Assembly (NCBI GenBank): GCA_019828565.1
Contig: JAHDYR010000012.1
Span: 1,669,780 to 1,733,779, forward strand
Reading direction: 5' to 3'
Length of the DNA stretch: 64,000 nt
Source of the DNA: Carpediemonas membranifera BICM
Lineage: Eukaryota > Protista > Fornicata
Part shown: piece after piece, positions 7,946-55,379 of the stretch
Numbering within the stretch: position 1 is the first letter of the stretch
How the letters are laid out: the number at the start of each line of letters is the position of its first letter
Program-made: the position numbers and the translations under genes
The notes under the pieces: model-generated
Seen by the model: only the letters and a program-made list of their open reading frames with translations
The model's database searches: none
Told to the model about the DNA's origin: nothing

Positions 7946-8897
7946 CACCCCGTCCAGGCCGCCTCTGCTCCCCACTCCGCCCCTGGTGTCCCCGCCATGG
8001 CCGTCGCCCCACGCTCCGCGAGGTGTTATAAGTGCGGCGACCGTGGCCACCTGGCCGACGTGTGTCCCCGTCCGAACCCGGTGTGTTTCCGGTGCAAGAA
8101 GGAGGGTCACGTTGCCAAGGACTGCCCTGCTCATGTAAATGACCGGGCGTATCAGGTTGGTGTTGTTGTTTCGGGTGAGGAGAGGGCCGCGCAGGAGGAG
8201 ACAGCGACGGTGTATGCTGTCAATAGCGGCTGCAGCACGTGGACACGGTGGTCGACGTGGAAGGGGTCAGAGCAAAGGCGCTGCTGGACTCGGGCGCCGG
8301 GGTCAACCTCATGTCGGCAGCGAGGGCGGCGGACCTCGGGCTGACTGTCAGAGAGCCGGGGGAGATCCGGCAGGTTGAGGGTCTTGGTGACCAACCCGTG
8401 CCAGTCATCGGGCGGGTGACGGCGACGCTTGGAGGAAAGCCGGAGTGGTGCGTTGTAGAGCCGGACGTGCTCTTCGTCGGCTACGACACCTTGGTTAAGC
8501 GCGGCATTGTGCTGCCCGACATGGCGGATAAGCTGACAGCTACAACCGTCCCAGGTTCGCGTGAGGACAAGCTACAGCGACTGTACGCGTACGATAGGGA
8601 GGGGACGGCTGCTGACTTGCCCATGTTTCAGCTTAAGCTGGCAACGGACGCAAGACCGTTTAGGGCATGGCCGAAGAAGATGGGCGTCGAGGATGCAGCG
8701 TGGGTGCGTCAGGAGGTGGCGAGCATGCTGAGGAAGGGGGTGATACGCCCGTCACTTAGCCCGTACGCATCGAGGGTGGTGCTCGCTGACAAGAAGGGGG
8801 GTTGTCAGTCAGTACAATTTAAGAACATTTATGGATTGACTTCGACACCCCTGTGTCGAAGTCTTTTCCCCCAGTAAAACAGGTATAGTCAAACCAC

Positions 8898-8909
8898 AGT
8901 AATATTACT
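8898..8909. promoter_or_regulatory. Palindrome at PBS position of B: AGTAATATTACT
   Basis: Perfect 12-bp palindrome overlapping the last A of the 5' LTR; ATG 4 nt later. Confidence 0.85.
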
Positions 8910-8913
8910 TCAA

Positions 8914-11900
8914 ATGACTGAAAACGGCCCGTCAGTGAACGAGCCAAGCATTAGTGCCATTCTGGCATTTCACGAAAAGCTAACGAGACATGTTCAGGCC
9001 GGTGGAAAGCGCCGCCTCATTAAGCGCTTAGGCCCTGCAGTTCTAACATTCTGCAGTTCATCGGGTGTTGATGTTAAGCAGGTGTACCGCCGCGCGAGGA
9101 GACAGAAGACATCATCCTCCCTTATTTTTCGCGCACCGCAAGTCCGTATGAAAAAGTCCGGAGCGGAAGACCTAGCTTTCCAGGCCGTCGTTGACGCCAT
9201 CAAACCTCAATCAGCTATCCTACAGCGCCAACTATTCCAGCTCTCTGTGAAGGGCGTCCATTCGGGGCGCTTCACACAGTACTTGGACAAGTTCCGTACA
9301 AGGTACCGCATCATCAAGCCTGATCTGGCGCCTGCTACGATCCGCCAGATGTTCCTGAACGGAATCCTGGACGAGTTCCTCCGCGAGGAGGTCAAAGACG
9401 CCGTAGTAGGAATGTCGCTCGATGAGACCTTCATTACCTCTCTTATGATCTGCAAGAAGCTCGAGGAAGCTCGTCTCATCTCTGAATCATACGCATCCCT
9501 CCATCCAGTGTCGTTAACACATCCTGGAAGCCGCGTCAAGTCTAGCAGAGCCCGTCCGGGCCGCCAAGAACGTCAACAGGCAAGACCTGACCAGCCTCCC
9601 CTCCAACGCCAAGCTCCTGAGCCACCGCACGCGTACAACCACTCCAGTTTCCAGCCTGATACGAGACGGCCCGACAGAGCCAGTAAGCAGTGTCAGAACT
9701 GCGGCAAGCAAGGTCACTTCGCCCGGGACTGTAAGAGAGATAAGATCAAGTGCGCAAAGTGTGGAAAGCTGGGCCACATGGCCAAGTTCTGCCGGTCGAC
9801 AGGCCCAGTTCCTGTAAACGACCGTAAGTACACCAATTACTCGACACCGGCGCGCGTTTGGACTATGGCTGGCGAGACAACTCCATCATTGCCTGTGGTA
9901 TCGGGTGCAGTGGACGGCTGCGCATGGGGACGCATACTATTCGATTGTGGTGCGGACATCCCGCTCGTTAACCCCGCCTCAGCTCAGGAAGCGGGACTGA
10001 ACGCGACGAAGCTAGCCAGCCCGATACACATCAAGTCACCCGGAGGCAGAATCCAGACAGACACGACCTATGAGGTCCCAGTAATCATGGACAAGTCGCC
10101 GATGACCCCGAAGGGCGTCGAGGCGACGGTGACCGCGTATGCAGTTGAGATGGAGTATGACATGCTCTTGAACTATGCAGTCATGGTGGACTGGGGCATT
10201 CTTCCACATGTTGGAGCTAGGTCGAGCGACTCGTCGATCGAAGAGGACGCCCAGCTCCCATCGACACTCGAGCGTCTTGAGAGACGACTCTACAATTTGC
10301 GAGCGGATATGAACGATAAGCAGAGTCGGATATTGGCCCGCTATGACCACTGTTTCCACGACCGGCAAGGTTTCAGCAATCTAGAACCATATGACCTTGT
10401 GCTCAAGTCGGACAGGGTGATCGCGTCACGGTCTAACTACGTCCCATACCAGCGCGAGCACTTATTCGACCAACATCTCGCCGAGCTAATCGAGAAGAAG
10501 TACGTCGAGCAGTCTTTCAGCCCATATGCTTCGCCGGTGCTCCTGGTTCCGAAGGGTCCGGACAAGACACGCATGGTCGTGGATTTCCGTAAGATCAACG
10601 ACGAGACGGAGCCGTTCGAGTACCCTATCTCTGAGATACAGACGTGTTTAGCGAAGTTAGGCGCATCCAAGGTGTTCGCCACCCTAGATTTATCGGCAGG
10701 GTACCACCAGATTCAGATGTCCGAACGTTCGCGCCAGTACACGGCGTTCAATACGCCGAGGGGCAAGTTCCAGTATACGGGCATGCCGTTTGGTTTGAAG
10801 AACGCGGGTGCTCACTTTCAGTACTCGATGGAGCGGGCGTTCGCAGATTTACTAGGAGCCAGCTGCCTGATTTATATCGATGACATCGTAGTCTTCGGAA
10901 GAACAGAGGCAGAGTATATCGTCAACCTGACGAAGGTCCTCAAGCGAGCGGATGAACTGAATCTTCGCCTCAATGCCGAGAAGTCACATTTCGGCCAGTC
11001 TACAGTCGAGTTCCTTGGCTGGACAGTTTCAGGTGAGGGCTACGGTATTGCTGCCGACCGGGTACATGACATCCAAGAGCTCAAGCTACCCAAGTCCCGA
11101 AAGGCGGCCCAGGCACTCATGGGATTTCTGAACTTCGTCCGTGACTTCGTGCCACACTTTTCCATGGTCACGCGACCATTGGCACTCGCAGCAGCCGGTA
11201 AGATTGGGCTAGGCACCCCAGAGCAGACCAAAGCCTTGGCCCTGGTGAAGGATCTACTGTGTTCCGCACCCATCTTACAACACTTCGACGTGACAAAGCG
11301 CCACGTGGTGATGACCGACGCGTCGGACGTAGGGATCGGAGGTGTCCTCCTGCAGGATGGCAAGCCTGTCAGTTATATGTCGAAGGCCTTCACCGATGTG
11401 CAGACAAGATGGAGCACGATAGAACAGGAGGCATATGCTATCGTCTCCGCGCTTCAACGCTGGCGCCGTTTCCTGGTCTGGACCCCTTTCACGCTGCTGA
11501 CCGACCACCGTAATCTCATTTATATGGCCCGTTCATCAAACGCTAAGGTCCAAAGGTGGTATGAATCGATCGCAGACCTCCCCTTCACAATACGACACGT
11601 CCCTGGAGTAGATAATGGAGCAGCGGATGGATTGAGCAGAGTCTTTGCTGCGTCCAAGACCCCGACCGCGACAGAGAATGAGATCCATGACGCTCACCTC
11701 CACGGTCAAGCCCATCTCCCCATTTATACGACAGTCGAGCTGTTGAAGGCGAGAGGGAAGCGAGCCCCCATTGACCAAGTCGCAGAGGTAATTAACAAGT
11801 GCCCAGTCTGTCAGCTCACGGCGAAGCCAGAGGACGCCAAGCGGTCGTACTTGCACACAGCGAGTGTAACTCCGTTTGATAAGGTAGCGATTGACACGAT

Positions 11901-12903
11901 TGGCCCGCTACCAGAGGTCAACGGTTTCAGCTATATCTTGGTAATGGTTGACACGGCCTCAAGGTGGACAGAGCTGGTACCCCTACGGACTACGAAGGCC
12001 CTTGAAGCAGTAAGAGCATTTACGAATACGTGGCTACTACGGTACGGGGCGCCTAGAGTTCTCCAGTCAGACGGAGGGCGCCAGTTTGCAAACCGTTTGT
12101 TCGAGGATCTTGCTGGTCGAGTCGGGTTCTCGACCCATATCACAACTCCGTATCACCCGCAGTCCAATGGGATTGTAGAGCGGGCGAACTCTCGAATCGA
12201 ACGAATCTTGCGCTCCAGGAAGTATGAGCTCCAGACCGAGGATTGGGTCGACTGTTTACCAGTGGCACAATTTATTGTTAACTCAACACCCAGAGCGGCC
12301 CATCACCTCACGCCGGCTGAGATTATCTTTGGAAGCGACATGCGAGTGCCGAGTGAGATTGTCTTCACGAGCCAAGATGACAGCGCGGACTATCCGGCAG
12401 ATAATGGCGAGGCGGTGAAACTCGCGAGACAGATGGCCGCGGCACGCATCCGAGCCATGCAAGAGGACGCGCGCAACCGGGTTGGGTCCCCGCCGGTTAT
12501 TGATTCAGAGTGGGTGCTGGTGAAGTATCCGACTAAGCCACCTTCCAAGCTTGCGGCAGGTTGGCGAGGCCCAATGCAGCTAGTGAGCCCGGTTATCGTC
12601 GACAACTTACCGGTAGCATACAATGTGAGAGACGTGAACTCGGGTAAGGAGTTCAGGGTAGCATCCGAGCGCGTGAGGTCTTTCGAGGGTGACTTGTCAC
12701 GCGACTCAGCACAGGCCCTGGCAGCGACCACTGATGCCGAGTACGTTGTCGAGTGCATTTACGATTCATCCAATGAGAAGTCGATCAAGAATAGGAAGTT
12801 CCACGTGCACTGGAAAGGGTATGAGCCATGCGAGGACACTTGGGAGCCTTACGAGAACGTCAAGGACTGCGAAGCGTTAGATATATTTCTCGGAAAAGCA
12901 TAA
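8914..12903 (+). CDS. B Gag-Pol single ORF (2x CCHC, PR, RT, RNase H, IN, chromodomain), intact
   Basis: CQNCGKQGHFARDC, FDCGA, LDLSAGYHQ, YIDD, TDAS, GPL..DGG..ER, WRGP, HWKGYEPCEDTWEPY. Confidence 0.95.
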   Translation: MTENGPSVNEPSISAILAFHEKLTRHVQAGGKRRLIKRLGPAVLTFCSSSGVDVKQVYRRARRQKTSSSLIFRAPQVRMKKSGAEDLAFQAVVDAIKPQSAILQRQLFQLSVKGVHSGRFTQYLDKFRTRYRIIKPDLAPATIRQMFLNGILDEFLREEVKDAVVGMSLDETFITSLMICKKLEEARLISESYASLHPVSLTHPGSRVKSSRARPGRQERQQARPDQPPLQRQAPEPPHAYNHSSFQPDTRRPDRASKQCQNCGKQGHFARDCKRDKIKCAKCGKLGHMAKFCRSTGPVPVNDRKYTNYSTPARVWTMAGETTPSLPVVSGAVDGCAWGRILFDCGADIPLVNPASAQEAGLNATKLASPIHIKSPGGRIQTDTTYEVPVIMDKSPMTPKGVEATVTAYAVEMEYDMLLNYAVMVDWGILPHVGARSSDSSIEEDAQLPSTLERLERRLYNLRADMNDKQSRILARYDHCFHDRQGFSNLEPYDLVLKSDRVIASRSNYVPYQREHLFDQHLAELIEKKYVEQSFSPYASPVLLVPKGPDKTRMVVDFRKINDETEPFEYPISEIQTCLAKLGASKVFATLDLSAGYHQIQMSERSRQYTAFNTPRGKFQYTGMPFGLKNAGAHFQYSMERAFADLLGASCLIYIDDIVVFGRTEAEYIVNLTKVLKRADELNLRLNAEKSHFGQSTVEFLGWTVSGEGYGIAADRVHDIQELKLPKSRKAAQALMGFLNFVRDFVPHFSMVTRPLALAAAGKIGLGTPEQTKALALVKDLLCSAPILQHFDVTKRHVVMTDASDVGIGGVLLQDGKPVSYMSKAFTDVQTRWSTIEQEAYAIVSALQRWRRFLVWTPFTLLTDHRNLIYMARSSNAKVQRWYESIADLPFTIRHVPGVDNGAADGLSRVFAASKTPTATENEIHDAHLHGQAHLPIYTTVELLKARGKRAPIDQVAEVINKCPVCQLTAKPEDAKRSYLHTASVTPFDKVAIDTIGPLPEVNGFSYILVMVDTASRWTELVPLRTTKALEAVRAFTNTWLLRYGAPRVLQSDGGRQFANRLFEDLAGRVGFSTHITTPYHPQSNGIVERANSRIERILRSRKYELQTEDWVDCLPVAQFIVNSTPRAAHHLTPAEIIFGSDMRVPSEIVFTSQDDSADYPADNGEAVKLARQMAAARIRAMQEDARNRVGSPPVIDSEWVLVKYPTKPPSKLAAGWRGPMQLVSPVIVDNLPVAYNVRDVNSGKEFRVASERVRSFEGDLSRDSAQALAATTDAEYVVECIYDSSNEKSIKNRKFHVHWKGYEPCEDTWEPYENVKDCEALDIFLGKA

Positions 12904-12954
12904 GCCTACCACTTATACGTACCTGTAAAAGGCAGGTAAGGCAGCCAACAGAAT

Positions 12955-15900
12955 TTATTCTTCGTCGATCGCACCAGCAGACTCGCGCAGCCGGGCCAGG
13001 AGCAGCTCAGGGTGCCACTCAGGGCGAACACGCGGCCAAAGACGGGCATTGGTGAGGTAGTTGGTGATCGGGAGGCAAGTGCACATGGATTGCGTGAGCT
13101 GAGTGAGTCCAGGCACGGCGTAATTCTGATACTTAACCACAAGGGTGAAGCTTTCGCGGAACTGTTCGTTGTACAGCTCAATGTGCCTGAGGCACTCGAC
13201 GATCACATAGTCGAGTGACGGGTCAGACACCTGCGGCACGAGCTCGGCAGCGCTGATCGTGGTCTCGATCCGTGCGATGCGATCGTTTGTGAGCAGGGCG
13301 TAGTAGTCCGTCACAAACCGTGTCGCCTCGTGAGCAGACAGACGGTCGACGCGACGGGCCTGGGCCACCATCCAACAGCAGTACAAGGAAGGGTGCGAAG
13401 AGATCATGATGATCCGCATCAGGGACTGGTTCGCCAGGGTTCGGAGATAGGATGGCTGGCGATCAGCGAGATCGGGAGTGATGCGGGTCAGGGTCGCTAC
13501 CACGACGTCGACCGTAGATCGGGAGAAACAGCCGGACGTGACACCGTCAGAGGCGAGCAGAGCCTCGGCGAGGGCAACATCGGCAGGTGAGTCGATCTCA
13601 AAGTGGGACCGCAGTGCACGGCCCACGACGGCGTCGGTGACGAAGTCCGTCAGGAGCAAGAGGGACTGACGCGTCATGAGGTCCCCAGCCTCATCGCCAG
13701 CGCTGAAGACCTGTGTGCCGTGTTACGAATGAGTTTTATGCAACAAACTCCCGCAGTTTAGGGTCACACTTCCCCCCATGCGGACGCATTAACGGCGCCC
13801 GGAACTGCGGAACTTCTTCTTGGCGGCGGCGAACGCGGCTTCATGCTCTGGATGAGCGACGAGGTAATCATCGAGAGCCGCTAGCTGGTCATAGTACCGG
13901 TTATAGGGTACATAGGAGTCTTCGTCGGGTGTGAGGCCTTCCCAACGGATGAGGAGCTCCAATGAGCCGTTCTTCTTCTTCTTGTGACCGACGATCTCCT
14001 TGACGGGCTGTTCGCCTTGCTCGAAAGCGGCGATCCGCTCGAGCTCGGTGTCGGATAAATCGGTCTCGAATCGGACCAGTCTGTCGGCGTGGACCGTGCT
14101 GACGCATCTTGTGACGAGGTCACGGACGCGGTAGGTGTTCGGGTGTTCGCCCTTCCCCTCCATGCGGAAGGGTCCGCGCAGGGGGGTGTAGATCTTAGCC
14201 GGGGGCTTGCCCGGGTAGCGCAGGAGAACGTATTGTTCTCTCTCCCACGCATGAGTGTCTGCTGTGGCCTTGGCCTTGCGCGCCTCGTACGCGCGAATCT
14301 TGACGCGGGCGAGGGCTTGTAGAGCGGCTACGTCCTCCTGGAAGCGGACAATCTCACCTTCATCAACGCTCCCAGGGGTGCAGCTCTTCGTGGCGTTTGC
14401 CAGAGCGATCGGGGCGACCCGTAGCGTCGATTCTTTGCCGAACAGCAGTTCGAAAGGGGAGCGACCGGTGGTGGCGTGGCGGGTAGAGTTGATGACGTGT
14501 TGAGCGAGCGGTAAATAGGCGGGCCAGTCGCCGTCCTCTGCGTCTAGGAGGAGCGCTCTCATGCGAGACATGATCGTGCCGTTGAGTCGTTCAACGACTC
14601 CGTTGCTGGCCGGGTGGTAAGGGGTTGAGAACCTGTGCTGAAGACTGATGATGGCGTTACACTCGGCAATGAGGGCGTTACGGAATTGAGTGCCCTGGTC
14701 GGTTTGAATCTCCTTTGGGACTCCGAACGTGGACCACACATCCAGCATCGCTGCTGCAGCCTCTTCGGCCTTTGTAGTAGCGACCGGACGGAGGATCGTG
14801 AACTTGGAGAAGACATCCACGATCGTGATGATGTAGGACATGCCGGCCTCTTCCGGAAGGGGGCCTATTGTGTCAAGCTGGACCGTCTCGAAGGGCTTGA
14901 GTCGCTGCGTGGAGTGCCACTTCGTCTTCTCGCGGGCAGGGGGTCTAACCTTCTGGCAGACGGCGCAACTTCTGAGGGTCTCCCGGACGTCCGATTTCAT
15001 GTCGGGCCAAGACTGCCCGGCGTTGCGGAGATTTGCCATCGTCTGAGCGACGCTGACGTGGCCCTGTGCACCGGCGTGGGCCTGGTTGATGAGGTGACGG
15101 TGAGAACTGGAGACCTGTTCGATAGCGGCCTTGAGGTCGTCTCGGTCCTCTGGGACGCTGCTAGGACGGGACAGCGAGTCGGCGACGACGTTGTGGACGC
15201 CCTTGATGTGGGCGATGGAGTAGGGGTATTCGGTCATTGTCAGGCGCCAGCGAGTAAGCTTTTTCGTGCCCTCCTCGTCCGTCTTTCTCAGGAGCCAAAT
15301 AAGGTTCCGGTGATCGGTTCTGAGAGAGAACGGCTTAATCTTAAGGAGGGCTGAGAACTCCGGTCGAGTTACACAGTGGATGATCGCGTAAAGCTCCTGT
15401 TCGACGGTCGACCACCTTTGCTGAGTCTCGTCCAAGGTCTTGGAATAAAAAGCGAGGGGAACCTTCTCAACTCCTTCGCCCTGCCAGAGGACCCCGCCGA
15501 TCGCTACTGAGGAGGCATCGGTCTCCAAGGTCCAGGGCTTGTCTAAGTCTGGGAGGGCGAGCGCCGTGTGTTCGGTGACCAGGTCTTTCATCTTAGCGAA
15601 AGCGGCGTCCTGCTCGGCGCCCCAGGCCACGGGGGACGACTTCCCCGGAGAGCCCTTAAGCAGCCGGTTGAGAGGTGCTGCGGCGTCGGCGAGATGGGGA
15701 ATGTAATTCGACAAGTAGTTGAACTTGCCGAGGGATCGACGGAGTTCCGACGTGGTGGTCGGAGGAAAGAGGTCGCGGATGGCCTGGACTCGAGCGGGGG
15801 CAACGGATCTGCCCATCTCGTTAACGATGAAGCCGCACACCTCAACCTCGGAGAGGCCGAGGGCACACTTGTCGGCCTTCAGTCTGACGTTGGCCGCCAG

Positions 15901-18900
15901 TAGATGATCGAAGAGATCCGTGATGGCGCTCTTGAACTCTTCCTCCGTGTGCGAGTAAGTGAAGATATCGTCGACGTAGGCTTTGGAGCTCTTGCAGTCT
16001 TCCAACACCTCGTCCATCGCTCTCTGGAACTTGGCCGGGGCATTCTTGAGCCCGAAGGGGGTACGAAGAAACTCGTAATGACCGCCTGGGATAGTGAAGG
16101 CGGTGAGTGAGACGCTGTCGGGGTCCATACGTTGCTGCCAGTAGCCGCTTCGGAGGTCGAGCGTGCCGAAGAGTGAGCAGCCGCTTGCCTCATGGACGAA
16201 GGAGCAGATATCTGGTGTCGGGTAGCGATCGTCTTCGGTGGCTTCATTCAGAACGTTATACGCGACGCAGAACCTGTCCTCACCGTTCTTCTTCTTCGCC
16301 ATCACGTGTGGGGATGAGTACGGCGAGTCACTTGGGCGGATGACTAATTGTTGGAGCATCTTGTCGATTTCAGCGGCGGCGCTGGACGCTTGGGAACCCT
16401 TAAGGGGGCGTGGTCTTGCCTTCGGGAGCCTGTGGTCGCCAGGCTTCAGGGTGATCTTGTGTGGACGCAACTCGCTGCCGTCCTCTGGCAGCTCGCCGAA
16501 GAGCTCGCGGCGTTCGTATAAGAAGCCTTCGAGCCACTTAGTGAGGTCTGGATTGTCATCGTAAGGGATTCGGACCTTCTTCCACTCGTTATCAACATCA
16601 ATCTCATCTGTGCAGGAGTCGAGATACGGGTGTGGAGGCAGATTGTCGTTGTCGGAGATGGTGGCGGATGACGGGATCAGCAGTCTGTCGTTCATGAGGT
16701 AGCCCAACCTTCTGAGGAGGTCGCGGCCGATCAGGACCTTTCGGCGTTTGGCGCGGATCACCATCAGCAATGCGGTGGCCTGCACGGTCTTGCCATCGAT
16801 AGACGGGAGAGTGATGTCGACCTTTGCGGCCTTACCGATGGAGATGACCTCGTCGCCGGCGCCGAAGAGCTCGACTGAGGTGTCGATGAGCTGGTAATTC
16901 GGGACCTTCGCTAGTGCGGGCTCCGAGATGACTGAGACGCAGGCTCCGATATCGAACTTCGTCTTGATTTGGACACCGTTGATCGTGGCCGGGACGTTGA
17001 TGGGGTCGTTGTCGATCTCAACAGCCCCCACCTCATAGACGTCACCTTCGTCCTCGGACTCGGCGTCATCTGAGGCGTTGTTGTCGACTTCATGGACGTC
17101 GCGCTGGCCGCGCGAGTTGCGAAGCTTTGAGGAGTCCCTCAGGAACATGTTGCCGGCCCGACGGTCGGACTGCGTACCGCTGGTCTGCTTCTGGTCGTTC
17201 TTCCGCGGCTGAGAGGAGCCGGAGGTGCCCTTGGACTGGTTGTCCTTCTGCCGTGCGAGGAACCTGCATGACTCTGTCGTATGGTTACTGTTCCACCCAT
17301 GAGACTTGCACCACTTGTTGAAGTGCTGTGGGATGGCATACTTGTGCTTGTCTTTGAACTGGAGATAGGGATCGCTTGTATGGGGCAGTACTGTCGGCTT
17401 TTGCTTGCCAGGGGCGCGACGGCCGCTGTCTTTCTGGTCGGCGGGTTGGGATGTTACCGCGAACGCCCGCCACGGGACAATAACGCGTTCGTCGTGATCG
17501 ACGTCGAGGTTCTCGAGGCGAGAAAGAAGATCGTCGATTGACTCGGCTGGGTCCTCGATGATGTCCTCGTAAAGAGCCTCGGCGTCCTTGCTATAGCCCT
17601 TGAGGAAGATCGACCCCAGTAAGCGCTCGGTCGAGTTGTAGGTTAGTGCCTCGATGTCTGGGACGCATGGATCGTAAGCGTTGAGGATCCTACGTAGCTT
17701 GAAGACGGCGAGTCGGTGCTCGACGGCTGGGCCGAAGAATCTAAGGCCGGATGCCTTGTCGCGCACCATCTTCAGTCTCGATCCCATGTCGAGGGTCGGT
17801 AGGAGCGTATAAACGATGTAGGGGATGATCGCCTTTGCCTCGGCGCGGAGGTAAGCGTAAACGTCGGGGAAATCAGCACGCTTTGGCCAGGCGGCCAGGT
17901 CGGGCTTCTCATCTATGGTGGGCTCCGGGACCTTGTCAGAGAAATCTGGGAGTGTCATGTCGGTCCCGTCAGGCACGGGGACAGTCGGGGTTGCGGCGCT
18001 GAAGAGGTCGGACCATCTGTTGGCCGCGGGGTCCTTCATGTACGAGGTGATGAATGTCCGGGCCTTCTCAGTGGCCTCCGGGATTGCGCGTTGTATCTCT
18101 GCCGAGATTGACTCCTTTGTCAGGCTGGTGAGGGCCGGGTCCTTGAAGTTTGAAGAGACCCGCACACACTCTGCGTACTGCGCTCGCTTGCAGGCCGCCT
18201 CAAAGGCAGCAGCGAAACGCTTGGCGATTGCATCTGCGGTGGGATTGTGGGATATAGCTTGCGGAGCCTCGTCCGAACGGGCCTGAGCTCGGGCTTCGGC
18301 GTCAGACATAATGGAGGTCTGGAGGCTCTCAAGAGTGGGAAATTTCGCTGTCGGACGCCAATCACGCTTTAACTTCGCGACCGTGTCCGCTGTGAGCGTT
18401 TGGATGAAAGAAGTTGGGTTTCTCTCGTGGATAATTGCAGTGGTGTAATCCGCGAGCGCCTGGATTGCGCTTTCTGGATCATTAGTCGTGAATTGCTTCA
18501 TTTCACCGGTAATATCGATATTGTGCCGTGTTACGAATGAGTTTTATGCAACAAACTCCCGCAGTTTAGGGTCACACCTGGCCGGTCCTCAGACGGGACA
18601 GCATGCCCTGGAGGGGCAGCTCGAAGCAGTTCGAGACGCGACCAGAGACCGAAGCGATTACGGTCTGGAAACGGGCTTCCCGCTCCGCCAGGTCCGCCCG
18701 ATGAGGTCCTTGGAGGTGCCCGCGGAGCACCTGGCGGGTGATGGGGCGGTTGGAGGTCCGGCGCTGGGCGGCCTCAACCGTGCTGACAGCATGACCAGCT
18801 TGGGCAGAACAAGTGGCGACAGCCACGACGCGTCCGGTCAAGGTGCGACGCGTACCTTCATCGTCGACGACAACACCCGTTACGCGGCGGATATCCTCAG

Positions 18901-19156
18901 GTGGGTGCCGGCGGGTGATCGCGCGAGCCGCAGGAACCTCGATGACGACGTCCTGTGGCGATGACGGCTCAACAATGGGTGCTGAGGAAGATTCCTCGGG
19001 ACGAGCACGTCTCTGGGGCATATCGGTGCTGTCCGGCACGAGCACGGACTGGTGTTTGCGCTTCAGAGCGCGGAGACGTTCAGCAACGGGCAGATTGCCG
19101 TCATTGCCAGCAAGATCAGCGATCAGTGCGTCCAAATCATGCACAAGGTTCTCCAT
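12955..19156 (-). CDS. B antisense accessory ORF, 444 aa after removing element C (19156-18577 + 13709-12955); C-terminal chromodomain-like region
   Basis: The two listed ORFs join in frame across TSD CCTG (..RTGQ-VFSAGDEAGDLMTRQ..). C-terminal DYVIVECLRH..LVVKYQNY. Confidence 0.75.
13789..18501 (-). CDS. C Gag-Pol single ORF, 1570 aa, intact
   Basis: CHHC-type knuckle CKSHGWNSNHTTESC, protease FDIGA, RT YVDD, RNase H TDAS, integrase, chromodomain IRWEGLTPDEDS. Confidence 0.95.
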   Translation of the reverse strand: MKQFTTNDPESAIQALADYTTAIIHERNPTSFIQTLTADTVAKLKRDWRPTAKFPTLESLQTSIMSDAEARAQARSDEAPQAISHNPTADAIAKRFAAAFEAACKRAQYAECVRVSSNFKDPALTSLTKESISAEIQRAIPEATEKARTFITSYMKDPAANRWSDLFSAATPTVPVPDGTDMTLPDFSDKVPEPTIDEKPDLAAWPKRADFPDVYAYLRAEAKAIIPYIVYTLLPTLDMGSRLKMVRDKASGLRFFGPAVEHRLAVFKLRRILNAYDPCVPDIEALTYNSTERLLGSIFLKGYSKDAEALYEDIIEDPAESIDDLLSRLENLDVDHDERVIVPWRAFAVTSQPADQKDSGRRAPGKQKPTVLPHTSDPYLQFKDKHKYAIPQHFNKWCKSHGWNSNHTTESCRFLARQKDNQSKGTSGSSQPRKNDQKQTSGTQSDRRAGNMFLRDSSKLRNSRGQRDVHEVDNNASDDAESEDEGDVYEVGAVEIDNDPINVPATINGVQIKTKFDIGACVSVISEPALAKVPNYQLIDTSVELFGAGDEVISIGKAAKVDITLPSIDGKTVQATALLMVIRAKRRKVLIGRDLLRRLGYLMNDRLLIPSSATISDNDNLPPHPYLDSCTDEIDVDNEWKKVRIPYDDNPDLTKWLEGFLYERRELFGELPEDGSELRPHKITLKPGDHRLPKARPRPLKGSQASSAAAEIDKMLQQLVIRPSDSPYSSPHVMAKKKNGEDRFCVAYNVLNEATEDDRYPTPDICSFVHEASGCSLFGTLDLRSGYWQQRMDPDSVSLTAFTIPGGHYEFLRTPFGLKNAPAKFQRAMDEVLEDCKSSKAYVDDIFTYSHTEEEFKSAITDLFDHLLAANVRLKADKCALGLSEVEVCGFIVNEMGRSVAPARVQAIRDLFPPTTTSELRRSLGKFNYLSNYIPHLADAAAPLNRLLKGSPGKSSPVAWGAEQDAAFAKMKDLVTEHTALALPDLDKPWTLETDASSVAIGGVLWQGEGVEKVPLAFYSKTLDETQQRWSTVEQELYAIIHCVTRPEFSALLKIKPFSLRTDHRNLIWLLRKTDEEGTKKLTRWRLTMTEYPYSIAHIKGVHNVVADSLSRPSSVPEDRDDLKAAIEQVSSSHRHLINQAHAGAQGHVSVAQTMANLRNAGQSWPDMKSDVRETLRSCAVCQKVRPPAREKTKWHSTQRLKPFETVQLDTIGPLPEEAGMSYIITIVDVFSKFTILRPVATTKAEEAAAAMLDVWSTFGVPKEIQTDQGTQFRNALIAECNAIISLQHRFSTPYHPASNGVVERLNGTIMSRMRALLLDAEDGDWPAYLPLAQHVINSTRHATTGRSPFELLFGKESTLRVAPIALANATKSCTPGSVDEGEIVRFQEDVAALQALARVKIRAYEARKAKATADTHAWEREQYVLLRYPGKPPAKIYTPLRGPFRMEGKGEHPNTYRVRDLVTRCVSTVHADRLVRFETDLSDTELERIAAFEQGEQPVKEIVGHKKKKNGSLELLIRWEGLTPDEDSYVPYNRYYDQLAALDDYLVAHPEHEAAFAAAKKKFRSSGRR
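18511..18522. promoter_or_regulatory. Palindrome at PBS position of C: AATATCGATATT
   Basis: Perfect 12-bp palindrome overlapping the 5' LTR end. Confidence 0.85.
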
Positions 19157-22100
19157 TAGGCCGTATGGAAGTATTAACCGCGGTCAAAACTTCATTTACG
19201 TGTTACATGATACAAAAACGTAGGACCTGGGTCATGACCAGGACTCCACACAGCTAAGTCAGGACGCTGAATAGCATGGTGCAACGCGTAATTTACGAAA
19301 GCAGACGGGTTAGGCAGAATTCGCCGACCGAGAAAGGGTCCGTTTGGTGAACCCCGATGAACGCTTGTTGAGGACGATAAGTCCGCAAAATCACGATATT
19401 TATACGTCTATGAGACGAATACTGATGTTGTTAGTGTTATAGAGCAATATTCGCGGCGTCCCAACTGTCGACGAACGAGAAAAGCAAAAAAAGGCCATAT
19501 CTCGGCAACGAAGAGGCTTTGAGGCCTCTAGAGGCGTTATTCGAACGCTATGTAAGAATGAGGGCTTTCAAGGCCGCATACCATGGTGGTTTCGAACTGA
19601 AGCCATTTGTGCATTTTAAGGATCCGAATGAACTAATCGACGACCATACGGCCCAGTAATGGCCCGTGGGAGGGCGGTAAGCCCGGGTAAGACTAACCCT
19701 TGAGCGTATGACGCAATACTTACACAGTGGTACCACGAAATTCTGAGTCAATCAATTTGGAGATACGTCACCACAGAACAACTACGGTTGTACCGGACAC
19801 CCTTACGTGGCAGTAAGAGTATGTCAACGGTGTTCCGGCTGCTGTGCTACCCACAGTTAGCGACGGTGAAGCAAGGGTTACCGAGCTAAGGCAGAGTACC
19901 CTTCCCGGGCACTGGGCTATTCCCCAGCCGCCAACGGTGAAGTAGGTTAGCACAGGCTTTCCCCTGTGAGGCCTACCGGCACAAGTTATTCATACTCAAG
20001 TCAGTTGAGCATGGAGGGGCAGTGTCAGTCAGTACAATTTAAGAACATTTATGGATTGACTTCGACACCCCTGTGTCGAAGTCTTTTCCCCCAGTAAAAC
20101 AGGTATAGTCAAACCACAGGGTGACAAGAGGCTATGCGTAGACTACCGACAGCTGAACAGGCTGACGGTGGACTATGACTACTGTTACCTTACAGTACCC
20201 GCTGCCCACCATATCCTCATTGATAGAGATGCTGGAGGGCAACTCCAAGTTCAGTACGCTGGACCTGAAGGCCGCGTTCAACCAGGTCGAGCTGGATGAG
20301 GATTCGAAGGGCCTCACAGCGTTCGCGACTCAGGAAGGCCAGTTTGAGTACAACAGGATGCCGTTTGGGCTCAAGTGTGCGGCGGCCCATATGCAGATGG
20401 CCATCGAGTCAGTACTGGGCGACCTCATCGGGCGCGCGTGCCTCGTATACATCGACGATATAGTCGTGTTCGGGGCCGACCAGGAGCAGCATGACGCCAA
20501 CCTGGACGAGGTGGTTGACCGGCTCTTGAAGCACAAGGTGGGGCTGGGCGAGGCGAAGTGCGTATTTGACAAGGAGGAGATCGAGTATGTGGGATGGATT
20601 GTCAGTGGAGAGCACAAGCGGATCGACCCGAAGCGAGTCGAGCACATCCAGAACATGCCCATGCCGGACTCCATTCCCGCGGTCAGGGGGTTCCTGGGCA
20701 CGGTTAACTTCGTGCACGACTGTATACCCCACTTGGCGTGGCGTGAGAGATGCCTACATCGCTTAGAGAAGAAGGACGCAGTGTTTGAGCGAGGCTGGAC
20801 ACCGGAGTGCGTCGAAGCCGTCAACACCATCAAGGCGGAGATCGCCAAGGCCGAGGCACTATGCATCCCCGGCGCAGAAGAACCACTCGAGCTGTATACC
20901 GACGCGTGCGAACACGGAGTGGGCGCAGTCCTCATGGCCAAGCGGGGCGACAAGCTCCTTCCGGTCGGGTATTTCTCCAAAGCCATCCAGGAAGACACGT
21001 CGAGGGCGAGGTGGAATATGACCCAGAAGGAGACGTTCGCCATCAAGGAAGGGGTCAAGCACTTCATTTCCTGAAGGGACGGAAGTTCACCGTCGTTACC
21101 GATCACCGCAACCTGTTGTGGATGGACCAGTCCGAGAACACGGTAGTGCAGCGGTGGGCCCTAGAGTTGCGGCAGCAGTACAACTTTGAGATCAGACATG
21201 TCGCCGGGGTGGACAACTCAGCGGCAGACTGGCTGTCCCGCCACCCGAGGAAGACAGCAGGGGAAGCGACCGAGAGCGTCTACGTAGCCAGCCCGGGTGA
21301 CGGCGAGACCCCGCATACATTGCCTGAGAGCCAAAAAGAGGCGCGGTTCAAGGAGGTACACGGAGCCGGCAAGGGCCACCATGGTGTGCAGCGGACACTA
21401 TGGAAGCTAGAGGACCGCGGGCTATTGTGGGAAGAGGCCGAGACCGATGTGTCAAGGATGGTCAAACAGTGCCCCATATGTCAGAAGTCCGGGCTAGGGG
21501 CCGACCCGTACCAGCTGGTACCCAGAGAGCCGCTCGGGCCATATGGCCGAGTGTTCGTGGACACCATTGTCATGAACGAGGCCGACGGTGAGTACAGGAA
21601 CATCGTCGTCGTTACCTTACCTTACAGTCGTGGAGGAGACGTCACGCTGGGTCACCCCCATACCATTGAAGTCAACGTCCTCGCGCGAGACCATCGAGGC
21701 GCTAGTCCGGCACTACCTGACCCACTTCCCGGTGCCGGCCGAGTGGGTGGCTGACAATGGGTCACAGTTCGCCTCCACCGAATTCCACGCATGGGCACAG
21801 GAGACTGGTGCGAAGGTAGACCACACCACGCCATATTACCACGAGGAGAATGGCGTGGTCGAGCGGTGGAACAAGGAGGTCAATCGTCACCTGAGGTGTG
21901 AGATGTACGAGCGGCAGACCCACAGGTGGGCCAGCCTGCTACCTGCCATCCAGAATATAATCAACTCCGCCCGATCGAAGGCGACCGGGTCGTCTGCATG
22001 GAGGTTGATAGTGGCAGACGGGACCAAGGCGTCCGTTGACAAGCTCAAAGCACAGAGGATGGAGGAGACCGAGGCTGTCATGGGTCTCACCCAAGATTAC

Positions 22101-22177
22101 ACAGATTTATATTGTCGAAGCCAGAATAAATGACGCATTCATTCTCGACTTCATGCGTCATAATTGTATTGATTCTC

Positions 22178-23133
22178 ATGGCCTATGGGATTGAGACGCG
22201 AATACGTTTTGGTCTTATGATGGACCAAGGGGCCTCCGAGAAAGATATAATGAAGCAACTCGGCATAATAAGCCGGTCAACAGTCACACGTTGGAAACGG
22301 TTGTACTATACGCACCAAGGAACGATCAAGAAGCGGAAGCGGGAACACAAATCGACGATGAAGCACGACAAGTTGATAATGCGAGCTGTTGCTAGGTGCG
22401 AGGATGAAGACAGACAGTTCACTGCTGCTGATCTTCGAGGCATGCTAGCAGGCTGGGTAGAAGACCCTCCCTCCGTATCTCACCTCCGCCGCTGGCTCAA
22501 GAAGCACCGCTACAACTACAAGCTGGGCCTCAAGATGTGGTATGAGAGCGACCCCACACGTATCGGTGAGTTCTGGGCCGAGTACGCCACGGTAATCCGC
22601 CCTCAGCACGCGTTCAAAGATCTTGTCTTCTTAGACGAGACCTCCTTCGACCCCCATCAGGCACGAACCAAGGGGTGGATGGCCGTGGGCGACTCGGTGA
22701 GCAGGGCCAGCGGGAAAGTTGTGGGCAATCGCGTTTCAGTATGCGCCCTCCTCGGCGTAAATGGGATCATAGACCGGGCTATCACCGAGGGAACGTACAA
22801 CGCGGACGACTTCTTTACTGTTCTACGTCGCTTCTTAGAGCGTATCCGCGGTCAGCACAAGGTCATGGTGCTCGATAACGCACGGAGTCATAAGACGGGA
22901 CGCGCTGAGCTGTATGAGCCACTGAGCAAGGAGTACGGAGTAACCTTCTTCTTTCTACCTGGCTATGCTCCTTTTTGAACCCCATTGAGACAGTGTTTGC
23001 CTGTGTGAAGAGAGAAGTGATCAAAAACCGTGGCAGGAACGAAGATGCCCTGCCATACATCACCGAAGCCTTCGATAGCGTGTCAGAACTTGTCAACTTG
23101 CCCGCATTGTTCCGTAAAGTGGGGTATTGGTAA
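22178..23133 (+). CDS. IS630/Tc1-type transposase (DD37E spacing), one frameshift in a T-run at ~22975
   Basis: N-terminal HTH (ISRSTVTRW), VFLDET, VLDNARSH, and LPGYAPF/LNPIE once the frame is restored. I count 37 residues between the second D and E. Confidence 0.85.
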
Positions 23134-23225
23134 ACGTGCAGTTTATGTCATCACCTCCAAGGCGCCATACACGGACCATGGGCAACACTGAGGATAATAA
23201 ACGATCAAGAGGTGCAACCAAAGGT

Positions 23226-23696
23226 TTATTCTTCCACGTCGTCTTCCTCTGTACCGTCCAACCCAGACGCATCCAGCGCCTGAGATGCTGAGACAGTACT
23301 GACGCGACCAGCTGCCAGGCGCCTGTTGTGTAGCCACGTATAGAGATCAGCTACTGCTTCAGTAGGCACAGGAACATGCACGAAGCTTGCGTCGACTGGA
23401 AGAGCCGGTGGTGATGATACAGAGATGAAGGACCCGGATGACTGGGATGATGAACGGCTGTATTCGCGATGCGAAAGGCCCATTGGAATCTCAGTCATAT
23501 CTGCCTTGTCGAGGATAACTTGAACCGCCCATGAAGCGATTCTCTCAACCGGAAGGCGCTTCGCTGTCCCATTCGCCGTCAGTATGTCTCGCATTGTCCC
23601 AAAAATGCTACACCCACCATCTAGCTTGTTTTTAAGGGTAACAAGCGGGCAGGTTCCGGCGTGATGGCCTGTTGCGCGGCATATAGTACAAGGCAT
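23226..23696 (-). CDS. Second, convergent transposon ORF with N-terminal CCHC zinc knuckle
   Basis: MPCTICRATGHHAGTC fits C-x2-C-x4-H-x4-C. It lies wholly inside the TIRs and is followed on its own strand by TAAACTGCA. Confidence 0.65.
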   Translation of the reverse strand: MPCTICRATGHHAGTCPLVTLKNKLDGGCSIFGTMRDILTANGTAKRLPVERIASWAVQVILDKADMTEIPMGLSHREYSRSSSQSSGSFISVSSPPALPVDASFVHVPVPTEAVADLYTWLHNRRLAAGRVSTVSASQALDASGLDGTEEDDVEE

Positions 23697-23851
23697 TCCA
23701 ACTTTCCTTTGAATGAATCAAAAATCCTTTTGGAATGCGTCATTTAGTTTGGTTCTCACAATATATGATATTAGTTAGTCAAGGAGTTTCTCCTCGACAC
23801 CATTGTGTCGAGTCTTCTCCTCTTGTAAACATAGTTCGTCAAACGAACCAC

Positions 23852-23863
23852 AATACTAGTATT
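23852..23863. promoter_or_regulatory. Palindrome at PBS position of D: AATACTAGTATT
   Basis: Perfect 12-bp palindrome overlapping the 5' LTR end. Confidence 0.85.
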
Positions 23864-23873
23864 CCACGTTTTG

Positions 23874-26800
23874 ATGACGCTCTATAACAATATGCCTATG
23901 CTAAAGAAGACGACCATTGAGTCGTTAGTCCGATTCGCCGAGGATTTGTCCGAGTACCGAGCCAAAGGCGGTGATGCCGACGTTGCCGACATGATTGACA
24001 CCGAAGTCCAACGGTACGCTGACGCTCTCGGCTTTAAACTCTTCGCCAAGGCCTCTGAAGCCATCCCCTCGGCTGAGGCCTCTGTCCCCGTGAACGATGA
24101 AGGTTCACCAGTAGCCGGAACGCCTAAAGACGACGAGCAACCCCTCCAGCAGTCCCTCATCCTAACCGCAGCTGTCCGAAAGACGCACAAGCGTAAGCGC
24201 AAGGCCAAGCGTCTCGCTAAAGACGACCACGTCCTCAAGCGGCTCGGTAGAGCACTGCAACCGTCCCGTTTTTCTGCCCGTCTCGACTTGTTCCGTCTTT
24301 CCATCTCGTCCTTTACTCCGCAGGAGGTGGTTCGAGTGAACCGACGGTTCAGAACCCTCCTCTCCCTTGTTGATCCCGGGGTAGACTCTGAGATCCTCTG
24401 CGACACCTACGCGCGTTGCTTTAAGCTACCCGATAATTCGCGCGTTCAGTACAAGGTTAAGGATCTCACCGAAGGCTTCTCCCTCGAACAGGCTATGCCG
24501 CGGGTGATTGATATCGCTCGCGATATCGAGGAATCCCGTGCCATGCTGCGTTCCATCGGAATGACCGACAAGCAGTCGTCAACCAAGGCTAAGTCGGGCA
24601 AACCCCATCGCGGTCTTCACCACGAACCCACCCATCCCGCCCCCAAGCCAATCGCCAAGCCTCATCATCAGGATAAGCCAGCCGCAAGAGCCCCGAACCA
24701 ACGAGGAGAGGGCAAGCGCGAGCTGGTGTGCTACAACTGCGGCGAGACGGGCCATCCATCCTTCAAGTGCCCGCGGGATCGTGCCACATGCCCGGTTTGC
24801 AAGAAGCAGGGTCACCTCGAGAAGTTCTGCCGTTTTAAGTCCCCAGTAAACGGGGCGAAGTGTTTATTTTCCGCTGCGTCAGGGGGAGGGTCGTTGCCTG
24901 TAGTCAATGGAGTCATCGAGAAGGCCGAAGTGAAGGTCTTACTAGACTCTGGTGCTGACTGTGCCACGATATCTCCCGATCTGTGCTCCTCGCCAGCCGT
25001 TACCAGGATCAACCACGATACTGTACGCATCCAAACGGCAGGTGGAATACGAGAAGCTGAAGGCACCGTATCGGTGCAGATCACGTTGAGGCCATCTCCC
25101 TTCACGCCACGTGGCTGCGAGCTGAAGATCCGCGCCTTCGTTCTCAAAACTGCGTACGAAGTCAGTTTTGGTTACAGCCAGATGGTAGAGATCGGACTGC
25201 TGCCCTCAATGGCCCAGCCTAGCAACTCGGAGAGCGAAGCAACTGACGATCCTCCCGTCCCGAGCAAGTTTGAAGCTAAGGCTCTTACCCTCCCCGATGG
25301 TATCGCGAGCCAGCAGATCAAGCTGCTCAAGGAGTACGAAGACCTCTTCCGTGACCGTACTGAACCGAGCAAGCTCGAGCCCTACGACCTATGCCTCAAG
25401 GGCGATCGAGTCGTCCACGTACGTCCCTACTATGTTCCGCCCCCAAAGGTCCCGGTGCGGCGGCAAACGGAATTCTCTTTACATAAACTGCACTGACTCG
25501 AGCGCCGTCGTGTGTTACCACAACACTCTACCCCCTCGTCTTCTTCCAAGCGAGGGAGTTGTCATGGATGTAGCTGATAACAAATACATTGTCCCAGTTG
25601 TCGGGCCCGTATCTCTCCCAGGTGGGATTGGAATAGCCCACCCATTCTACTAAGATCTCCCGAACGCCACGCTTGATCCGGTGTTTCCGGACGGCTTGGA
25701 CTTGGAACTCTTCTGAGTCTGTCGCGGCCAATCTCCTGCCCTCATCAAGGTCAGGGACGGTGACTCTGCTGAGTCGTGACACATGCACAACCCGCACACT
25801 GTCGTCGACTAGTGAGCCTATCTCGACAGCCTTATGCTCGAGGACTCTTAGTACCTTATAGGGTCCCTTGAGGCCATGTAGCTTCGATTTGTTCACTGGC
25901 CTCTCCAGGACGAAGTCCCCTGCGCTGAGTTGAGTCGCTTCAGTGTCATCCCTAAAGTGCTCGACGGCGAGGTGCTCATCTCGAATGACCTTCACCACGT
26001 CTTCCTGAAGGCGTCGGAGGTTGTCTAGGGCCGTCTTGACGTCCCTAACCACATCAATCTTAGAGGGTGCCGCCGGCGGTGTCCTCCGCAGCTGGCCGAT
26101 CTCCACGTAGCGCCCATACAGGACCTCGTTCGGCGAGAATCCTGTTGCTGTGTGGACAGCACTATTGAGGATGTGTTGAACATATGGCAGGGTCTCTTCC
26201 CACCTGCTGAAGTCGTTCAATGCCAGTGTTAGCCATCTGACGTGTCTCATGACTTCGGCGTTGCGTCGCTCTACCACACCATTCGATTGAGGGTGGTAAG
26301 GCAGTGTCCTACGGTGGAACGTGTGCATGAGTGTTACGAGCTCCGAGATGACGCTGTTCACGTACTCTGGACCGTTGTCTGACTGAATTACTGTCGGCAC
26401 GCCGTGTCGGCAGGCTAGCAGCCAGAGGGCCCTTGCAGCCTGCTGGCCCGTATTGACCTCGGCAGGCATCAGCTCAGTGTAACGACTGAACATGTCGGTC
26501 GCCACGAAGATGTAGTGGAAGCGCGACTCTCCGTGGATTGGTCCGATCGTGTCAATGGAGACGCACTCCCACGGCGCTGTCAGGCCGTCCGTGGTAGAGC
26601 TGTTCGTAGTCTGGATGAAGTCCCGCAGCCTGGTCTTTCTACAGACAATGCAGTCCTTGACATGGTTGGCAACGGCGGTAGCGCGTCCTCGCCAGAATGC
26701 CACATCCTTGAGGGAGCTCATAGTTCCTGATCGTCCACTGTGACGGCGGTGGGCGTACTGGAGGAGCTCGTCCTTCAGTTCCGTCGCGCCTTCAGGTACG

Positions 26801-32275: not shown

Positions 32276-32318
32276 ACCCTCCTATTCTCATCTCGCCTGA
32301 TTTATTGTTGATTAGTTG

Positions 32319-41300: not shown

Positions 41301-42337
41301 GAGGTCTGGAGAGGTTGGGGCCCTGAGGGCGCTGGCTGTTGGCAGGATGCGTAGGGCCTCGGCCCACACGCTTGACGTGGCCGGCTGGAGCCGGGACGTG
41401 GGCCTTCGGGCCCCTGGGGGGACCCTGGCGGTCAAGGAACTTAGCCGCCTTGACCGCCGACTTGACTGTATCGTCGAAGGAGTCATCGCCCCATAGGAGC
41501 GAGATCCATCTCGTCTTAGTCTTCAGGGCCTTAGGCCGCTGGAGGAGCGTCGATGAGCAGTCTGCTACAGAGCTGCTCAAAGCGGTGACGTCTGGAGGAT
41601 ACCTCCTCGTCCGTGGCGGCCTCGGGGAGGTCCTCGCCCGGAGGAAGGGAGTCGAAGAGACGCATCCGGTTTCGGAAGCTGGCGACCAGCACACGGGTTG
41701 CTCGCTCGATAGAACCCATGGCGGTGCCGTTGGGGACATTACGGGTACTGTCCCAGTCAAGAGAGAGAGATGCTAGGTTATCTAGCAGGTCGATGACGTT
41801 GTCAGGAGTTACGAGCTTGCGCATCAGAGTGGAGAGTTGATCAAGGGTAGCTCTCGTGAAATCGACGTCGGGGTATTGTGCTTGAAGTTCTGTGATGTCT
41901 TCGAGTGACAAGAAGTCCGTGGGAGCAACCTTGCTGTTCGTTGCAAGGAAAATCCTGCCCATACGCTCAAAGGCGTCGATACTCTCGATGGTTGCATCTT
42001 TCAGCTTGATAGTGGGGTAATTACCTGTAACGGTGTTGATTGAAGTACTCATGAACTAGTTCTAGAACTGAAGAGAGAATTCGTTTACTTGGGGAAATCC
42101 GCATAGTTGGACCAAAGGTCAATCGTGGTCAAACCCACGTCATGACGATCGCAGATTTTGGATGTCGGAGCCCAATGTTGCACAACGGCGCTGCAGAGAA
42201 CGCATTCGAGGATCATCAGATTCCTCAGAAGCTACTAGCTGCAGCAACCGCGCCAATTCCCCCAAATGTTCCGTCACCATTTGCACCAAGATTGGTGCAA
42301 AATGAAACATCCCAATCCCGAATGGAAAGCCGCTCAA
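32319..42337 (-). CDS. D antisense accessory ORF, 382 aa after removing F and G (42337-42143 + 37713-37143 + 32701-32319); C-terminal chromodomain-like region
   Basis: Both junctions restore the frame exactly (NLRSS-RVAP; LALA-VFPG). C-terminal TYRLERVVGSR..LLTLKWEDY. Confidence 0.75.
32706..37142 (-). mobile_element. Element F: chromodomain Gypsy element, 84-bp LTRs; gag-pol 37043 to ~32782 with frameshifts
   Basis: Identical LTRs at 32706-32789 and 37059-37142. TSD CGGC. CRLCGGEHWDSDC, VDTGA, YIDD, IKWEGY. Related to E. Confidence 0.93.
37048..37057. promoter_or_regulatory. Palindrome at PBS position of F: AGTGATCACT
   Basis: Perfect 10-bp palindrome 1 nt from the 5' LTR end. Confidence 0.85.
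37718..42142 (-). mobile_element. Element G: chromodomain Gypsy element, 74-bp LTRs; gag-pol 42052-37846 with several frameshifts or stops
   Basis: Identical LTRs at 37718-37791 and 42069-42142. TSD TGAC. CKFCQGWHKDYRC, VDTGA, YLDD, VKWLGYDELTDEP. Confidence 0.93.
42058..42069. promoter_or_regulatory. Palindrome at PBS position of G: AGTTCTAGAACT
   Basis: Perfect 12-bp palindrome overlapping the 5' LTR end. Confidence 0.85.
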
Positions 42338-42508
42338 ACATGGAGTTATGATCTCTTTATTGTTGTCTTGATGTTGTTTAGTCGTTTAGTAGCTCTGTAG
42401 TGGGTCTTACCCAATACTTACATAGTTTATGACTTATAGATTACACCATATTTGCAACCATTGGGTTTTCTCTTTATTAAAGTTCTTTCCCTCCTCCAGT
42501 AGGAGCAC

Positions 42509-42520
42509 ATTAGATCTAAT
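42509..42520. promoter_or_regulatory. Palindrome at PBS position of H: ATTAGATCTAAT
   Basis: Perfect 12-bp palindrome overlapping the 5' LTR end. Confidence 0.85.
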
Positions 42521-55369: not shown

Positions 55370-55379
55370 AGTAATTACT
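55370..55379. promoter_or_regulatory. Palindrome at PBS position of I: AGTAATTACT
   Basis: Perfect 10-bp palindrome overlapping the 5' LTR end. Confidence 0.85.

Follow-up and report, generated by a model that had tools for sequence, protein, structure and literature searches.

Minute long terminal repeats and a palindrome at the primer-binding position in a nest of Ty3/gypsy retrotransposons of Carpediemonas membranifera

The 64,000-bp stretch of the Carpediemonas membranifera BICM genome analysed here (contig JAHDYR010000012.1, positions 1,669,780 to 1,733,779; hereafter the window) is, from about 7.5 kb to its end, a nest of Ty3/gypsy long terminal repeat (LTR) retrotransposons, among them element C (13714..18576, minus strand), a 4863-bp element bounded by the 4-bp target-site duplication (TSD) CCTG and lying inside the 3' extra region of element B. 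We propose, at a probability of about 0.55, that these elements belong to a compact protist Ty3/gypsy lineage with LTRs of 51–125 bp, in which a palindrome of 10–12 nt would replace the tRNA primer-binding site (PBS) and two RNAs would prime reverse transcription through it. The palindrome next to each LTR is absent from the initial annotation of the window, which dealt with the short LTRs, and is the feature that we judge most informative there.

An exact-repeat search of the window recovered nine LTR pairs, of 51 (K), 55 (C), 70 (E), 74 (G), 84 (F), 88 (I), 96 (B), 114 (H) and 125 bp (D), all with TG..CA termini and a purine tract directly at the 3' LTR, and eight of them with a 4-bp TSD, which I lacks. 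All ten LTR lengths given by the initial annotation, including that of L, were reproduced, every one with TG..CA, and its delimitation of the elements by termini, polypurine tract (PPT) and TSD stands apart from the TSD of I. It had also described the pairs as identical but for one mismatch in I, which is accurate for the nine pairs (pooled divergence 1/757 bp, the sole mismatch being in I), L having one LTR only. The same pooled figure is what carries the description of the insertions as recent, because an identical 55-bp pair such as that of C by itself permits up to 5.3% divergence (95% bound).

Element C has a 5' LTR (18522..18576, minus strand; 55 bp, TG..CA) with TAAACTGC at +9 and a CATAAA whose TAAA lies 25 nt before the 3' end, followed at the primer-binding position by a perfect 12-bp palindrome (18511..18522, minus strand) whose first base is the last A of the LTR. 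Its gag-pol open reading frame (ORF; 13789..18501, minus strand), which at 4713 bp including the stop confirms the earlier reading, encodes 1570 aa and fills 97% of the element; a PPT (13769..13777, minus strand) adjoins the 3' LTR (13714..13768, minus strand), which has the same sequence as the 5' LTR. The encoded domains are, in order, gag, protease (PR; D-I-G), reverse transcriptase (RT; YVDD), RNase H, integrase (IN; HHCC and DDE) and a weak chromodomain, and the catalytic residues of RT, RNase H and IN are all present. C gag gave no match in Pfam or the PDB and nothing above 0.8 in an Atlas look-up, and is homologous to five related polyproteins, with its zinc knuckle conserved. This knuckle is atypical (C-x2-H-x6-H-x4-C, in the region 17266-17310); similar CHHC-type knuckles occur in the nearest relatives of C and in the gag of K and L, while E, F and G gag have shortened CCHC knuckles.

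Among seven elements compared, C and B only are in a single frame with related proteins, the gag-pol of B being one ORF of 1329 aa. In the other five (E, F, G, H and K) the reading frame changes at least once inside gag-pol; the intervals in which it does so contain homopolymer runs in E, F, G and H, the four examined, and the aligned gag-pol parts contain one in-frame stop, in K; the frame switches may be either real decay or assembly indels. The word 'intact' in the initial annotation can be kept for the open gag-pol frames of C and B, but not for the five frame-switching elements, and for C it has to be read alongside the D-I-G of its protease.

By domain order, termini and RT, the elements are Ty3/gypsy. 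The order PR-RT-RNase H-IN is present, and in a comparison of RT-RNase H with solved structures Ty3 RT came top (E=1.9e-66), followed by a pararetroviral-type polyprotein (9.9e-48). Of the chromodomains, those of B, D, H and J exceeded the Pfam cut-off and those of C (22.8 bits) and I fell short of it; E, F and L have none.

How so short an LTR might be divided into U3, R and U5 is suggested by a motif common to all of them. All 12 LTRs contain TAAA, against a mean of 4.4 and a maximum of 10 over 20000 shuffles, and ten have it 19–33 nt from the 3' end (shuffle mean 1.0, maximum 6); both motif and distance window were picked after inspection and related families are not independent, which weighs against these counts, as do the antisense-strand TAAA found in 8/12 LTRs and the position of the sole TAAA of K and L, 39–44 nt from the end. 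Nine of the 12 hexamers are AATAAA, ATTAAA, AGTAAA or TGTAAA, which are signals mapped in trichomonads and Giardia, with cleavage 15–20 or 8–9 nt later, in a study that does not cover Carpediemonas (PMC11529991). In the window, TAAA follows 8–63 nt past the stop in all four host genes read. We infer that the LTR TAAA may serve as a poly(A) signal, in which case U5 would be left with about 1–20 nt. Because TAAA near the LTR 3' end is taken in this way, R and U5 would each measure some 5–20 nt and U3 would be little more than a core promoter, which matches the short intergenic spacers of the host. R regions of 10–11 nt are known in Sire and mouse mammary tumour virus (PMC3601003), and the in-frame ATG of gag lies 16–25 nt behind the 5' LTR in all nine elements. 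The near-minimal U3-R-U5 of the initial annotation is thus a plausible reading of the distance of TAAA from the 3' end.

A longer form of the motif, TAAA[CG]TGCA, has 13 matches in the window against 0.44 expected, located in host spacers (341, 3652 and 5612), at 23145 behind a mariner ORF, and in the LTRs of K, L, M, O and E. In the K-type LTRs it lies 13 nt from the start, and the LTR of C has a near match at 9 nt; it may be a candidate Carpediemonas 3'-end or promoter element. Separately, a hairpin, CGACAC-N4-GTGTCG, is confined to LTRs (8843, 20063, 23795, 32736, 37089 and 48843), its carriers being B, D and F, even though the last of these comes from a different sub-lineage; the K LTR carries a related CCATTGTG.

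The LTR might instead have no working promoter, the RNA arising by read-through from the flanks or through downstream signals, which would have let U3 shrink. We regard this as possible but distinctly less probable than a minimal promoter-bearing LTR, and it is compatible with either of the priming models considered below. It would suit the dense packing of the nest and the LTR of K, in which the poly(A)-like motif 13 nt into 51 bp leaves less than 30 nt upstream; however, C has two separate motifs, TAAACTGC and the CATAAA near +30, and the presence of TAAA[CG]TGCA in short host spacers means that a compact host-type promoter could fit as well.

The evidence on priming comes from the base of the leader, which opens with a perfect palindrome of 10–12 bp in all nine elements whose 5' LTR the window contains. 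The palindrome begins at the last A of the LTR in seven elements and at +2 in E and F. As background, such palindromes begin at 113 positions of the 64000 bases, and composition-preserving shuffles of each 21-nt leader gave one in 0.6–2.6% of cases, depending on the element, for a joint chance of about 3e-10 (product over five representatives, B, C, E, I and K). The nine palindromes are nine different sequences. When pairs were counted from each centre (MAFFT left the palindromes out of register), positions 1 and 2 each showed all four Watson-Crick pair types and position 5 three, and the central four bases were self-complementary in 9/9, with six different sequences. The predicted energy was 0.0 for the hairpin in every case and −9.0 to −15.6 kcal/mol for the homodimer, so that the palindrome is predicted to form RNA homodimers and not hairpins. 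The symmetry of the centre favours the same intermolecular duplex, because a hairpin loop would leave the central four bases free and a duplex would not.

Moreover, no TGG-type, Tf1-type or GalEa-type site was found at this position. No TGG follows the 5' LTR in any of the nine elements; a Tf1-type site would be complementary to the LTR, but the first 20 bases of the leader have no complement to it longer than 7 nt in 9/9; and the best match to a GalEa-type second 9-mer downstream has 3–5 mismatches of 9 in 9/9. Nor was a conserved intramolecular fold of LTR plus leader detected, z being −0.84 to +1.25 in 7/8, no better than shuffles; B is the exception, owing to the hairpin internal to its LTR.

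We therefore favour a scheme in which the palindrome itself would prime. Two genomic RNAs would pair antiparallel through it, which would place the palindrome 3' end of one RNA opposite the last U5 base of the other; a cut there, probably by the RNase H of the element (the enzyme that cuts the Tf1 primer), would leave a 3'-OH exactly at the LTR edge. A plus-strand copy of the self-complementary primer would then regenerate the site, and a change in one half would be mirrored into the other, because of which the sequence of the palindrome could drift while its symmetry is kept.

The intermolecular-pairing evidence fits equally well a palindrome that serves solely for dimerisation or packaging, comparable to the retroviral dimer signal DIS or the PAL of Ty1 and set in a leader of 15–24 nt, with priming by an internal tRNA fragment or at a split site in another part of the RNA. 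Dimers of Ty1 have been proposed to form via palindromes, and the primer sites of Ty1 and Ty3 are bipartite (PMC4974528). We nonetheless hold this to be unlikely, at perhaps half the weight of palindrome priming, since the palindrome sits exactly at the edge of U5 (on the last LTR A in 7/9), where the minus strand has to be initiated, since nine differing sequences would each require their own tRNA match, and since the retroviral DIS is additional to a PBS (PMC5445492). Less probable again is that a single RNA, cut behind the palindrome, snaps back as a small hairpin and primes into U5: this would explain the U5-edge position and make a second RNA unnecessary, but no hairpin is predicted for any of the nine palindromes, and the four central bases that would form its loop are self-complementary in all nine, in six sequences.

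Short LTRs are found throughout the nest, in elements that are far apart in sequence. The RT cores of eleven elements are 26–75% identical to one another, and their LTRs have no alignable sequence in common apart from short motifs, and yet are all short; because families so divergent in RT all have them, short LTRs appear to be a lineage trait, with no sign of deletion derivatives. That they are nevertheless such derivatives, mobilised in trans, or products of assembly-collapse trimming, from founders with ordinary LTRs, is very improbable. Frame switches in 5/7 elements compared and the atypical C protease would be in keeping with it, but nine LTRs of unrelated sequence are all short, both LTR edges are set by PPT, palindrome and 4-bp TSD in 8/9, the nested insertion order is coherent, and A, J and L, with one LTR each, also have short ones.

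Trees of RT placed the elements together. In FastTree runs on 228 and 261 RT sequences, the window elements all fell into a single clade with 23 members (support 0.90 and 0.93), and in a tree of RT-RNase H from 113 sequences ten fell into one with 40 members (support 0.88), so that one clade was recovered in three of four trees; element I is left out of the trees, and K also of the RT-RNase H tree. Those of its members that have a name come from C. membranifera and, in one case, from the jakobid Andalucia godoyi; a named microsporidian Pol (P0102) falls outside it. The closest named RT relative, at 57% identity, is likewise a C. membranifera protein. For comparison, we gathered 80 metagenome loci, 72 from viral collections, 36 from prokaryote bins and one further; all are at most 44% identical over RT, and none of those entered in the trees lies inside the Carpediemonas clade. 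Those with readable ends mostly have ordinary TGG sites, preceded by 191 bp in L028, about 144 in L059, 248 in L160 and about 105 in L083, the last an outgroup locus from which it follows that an LTR of about 100 bp is not unique to the elements described here. In three distant environmental Gypsy loci, palindromes of 14–20 bp lie near possible LTR ends (L013 1696-1820, L023 1-180 and L045 85-110); they were not counted, as the LTR border could not be fixed.

Several further points weigh against the proposal. The palindromes of E and F stand 2 nt off the LTR, so that the geometry is not uniform, and the D-I-G active site of the C protease contrasts with D-T-G or D-S-G in 10/12 aligned relatives. 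In the fourth tree, of 409 sequences and RT only, the clade was lost, J, K and L (short or long-branch rows) falling out of it. Both LTR size and palindrome are known from this one window, and the case for dimer priming is drawn from sequence and predicted pairing. Finally, the window itself contains no tRNA, and half-tRNA or split-site priming retains some probability.

In the literature searched, which took in neither most subscription journals nor Repbase, we found no autonomous LTR below 100 bp and none near 51–55 bp, no palindromic primer site in Gypsy elements, and no account of LTR elements in Carpediemonas. Some Gypsy entries of Repbase are described there as having a self-priming palindrome together with a TSD of 4 bp. 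The LTR of Bombyx Mag is 77 bp, and SMART elements have terminal repeats of about 85 bp and are non-coding. LTR means for autonomous Gypsy elements range by clade from 174 to 695 bp (PMC3601003), and the smallest LTR in the accessible part of a table of Culex elements is 145 bp (PMC3286476). The Mag and CsRn1 clades, with compact autonomous elements of 4.3–5 kb and the shortest LTRs among the clades tabulated, come close in size, but their LTRs are 145–300 bp (Mag C mean 174) and they have tRNA-Leu/Ser sites, whereas here LTRs are 51–125 bp and no tRNA site is present (PMC3601003, PMC3286476, PMC11117352). TRIM terminal repeats, at 100–250 bp, are short as here, but TRIMs are non-coding, whereas the present elements encode gag-pol (PMC6934838).

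As regards priming, the closest parallel is the Conserved Hairpin Site of GalEa, a fungal Ty1/copia group described by Donnart et al. (2017), which like the elements of the window is without a tRNA PBS and has at the PBS position a 10-bp palindrome that takes in the last A of the 5' LTR, as in 7/9 here (PMC5445492). GalEa differs in being of the Copia order, with LTRs of 138–311 bp and a 5-bp TSD (Gypsy order, 51–125 bp and 4 bp here), in having a palindrome nearly fixed in sequence where we find nine different ones, and in a complementary 9-mer (CHSeq2) 12–41 nt downstream that has no counterpart here (PMC5445492). The authors of that paper regard the mechanism as unknown, with no described model fitting, and mention retroviral dimer signals (PMC5445492). 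Tf1 and Tf2 are, like these elements, Ty3/gypsy, often with a chromodomain, and without a tRNA primer, their own RNA being cut as primer; however, in Tf1 the PBS is not a palindrome and anneals to its own transcript at the 5' end (PMC5445492, PMC6934838), whereas such complementarity is at most 7 nt here. A palindromic primer position is therefore known from the fungal GalEa Copia elements, and a metamonad Gypsy lineage with tiny LTRs is the addition. It is conceivable, at somewhat less than even odds, that a Gypsy lineage found across protists combines LTRs of down to 51 bp with a third priming route, in which a self-regenerating palindrome would act as dimer signal, primer and PBS and would have arisen independently of that of the fungal Copia elements.

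The remaining elements of the window are arranged around C as follows. Element B (8803..20118, plus strand; TSD GGGT), into which C is inserted, has LTRs at 8803-8898 and 20023-20118 (96 bp) and its palindrome at 8898-8909. Element D (22076..48900, plus strand; TSD AGGC), with 125-bp LTRs (3' copy 48776-48900) and a palindrome at 23852-23863, hosts the nested insertions E, F, G and H. Its 5' LTR is interrupted by a Tc1/mariner-type element (22111-23762) with a DDE_3 transposase, terminal inverted repeats and a TA target, whose second, antisense ORF (23226-23717) is covered by a contig from a sequencing run. On the minus strand within D lie E (25456..29815; 70-bp LTRs, TSD CCGG, 12-bp palindrome 29733-29744 from +2), F (32706..37142; 84-bp LTRs, TSD CGGC, 10-bp palindrome 37048-37057 from +2) and G (37718..42142; 74-bp LTRs, TSD TGAC, 12-bp palindrome 42058-42069 with an overlapping 10-bp one), and on the plus strand H (42396..48293; 114-bp LTRs, TSD GCTC, palindrome 42509-42520). 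Beyond D, on the minus strand, are I (49674..55466; 88-bp LTRs with 1 mismatch, no TSD, palindrome 55370-55379), which is broken by the insertion of J and by an internal deletion, and K (55501..60190; 51-bp LTRs, TSD CATG, palindrome 60131-60140). Three elements are represented by a single 3' LTR: L (60195..60250, minus strand; 56 bp), with its partner outside the window and its border based on PPT, TG..CA and a 5-bp terminal inverted repeat; A (49523..49620, plus strand; about 98 bp), with its border inferred from PPT and TG..CA; and the 5'-truncated J (53441..53573, plus strand; about 133 bp), with its border likewise inferred.

B (12904-20022), D (32276-48775) and H (46449-48179) carry 1.7–2.3 kb of extra sequence between pol and PPT. 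It contains long antisense ORFs: that of B, which C splits, measures about 450 aa and that of D about 400 aa, and H has two, of 190 and 276 aa. These ORFs are mutually dissimilar, with one segment of 65–73 bp in common, and both pieces of that of B gave no Pfam match and nothing above 0.8 in the Atlas look-up. K-type elements lie head to tail on the minus strand (49632-49673, 55467-55500, 60191-60250 and 7553-7574), and insertions within about 6 bp of each other are the 3' LTR of L, K itself and two partial LTRs, M, which I splits, and O, which A splits; the body of O is 61% similar to L. This arrangement suggests that K-type elements target sites immediately upstream of LTRs of their own family.

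The host is a free-living metamonad protist, and compact host genes occupy the initial 7 kb of the window, including one for a HAD hydrolase (3728-4408) whose product is identical to protein P0244; P0244 falls in one 90% cluster with a C. membranifera protein, at 97% identity. The G+C content reported for C. membranifera, 57.1% (PMC8516963), is in line with the 51–61% found across the window. Adjoining this gene-dense DNA, the nest spans more than 56 kb (7553-64000) and comprises 13 or more LTR elements from many families, several of which have a chromodomain; it is possibly a centromeric or heterochromatic region in a host whose kinetochore is reduced (PMC8516963). The main text of the genome paper contains no occurrence of LTR, retrotranspos- or Gypsy, although its supplements may bear on the matter (PMC8516963). 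A scan of the window with Rfam gave 0 matches.

Contigs from sequencing runs, whose status as RNA is a guess, match C exactly at 13788-14111 and 14221-14383, towards the 3' end of its coding sequence, and none covers any LTR; they come from two coded runs with the same content, and no transcript end is readable from them. Their coverage of host genes is uneven and derives in part from a paralogous copy. At 1780-2470, a segment with no recognised gene and no Rfam match, contig depth exceeds 1000 with many variants, which can be read as multicopy or highly expressed sequence.

A short LTR alone would be a record-type observation; together with a covarying palindrome, it makes a compact system for the question of priming. 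If the proposal is true, these elements would set a lower bound on the size of a working LTR, below any autonomous LTR found in the literature searched, and C would offer a single-ORF test bed of 4.9 kb for priming without a tRNA site or a Tf1-type fold-back. Moreover, nine natural variants of the palindrome in one locus make a rule of symmetry, not sequence, directly testable. As the initial annotation rightly said of common LTR finders, minimum lengths are set near 100 bp, which is the LTRharvest default (PMC2253517); seven of the nine pairs fall below it, and tRNA-based filters would discard all nine. Because LTR-length cut-offs and tRNA filters miss such elements, lineages of this kind are probably under-annotated in protist genomes.

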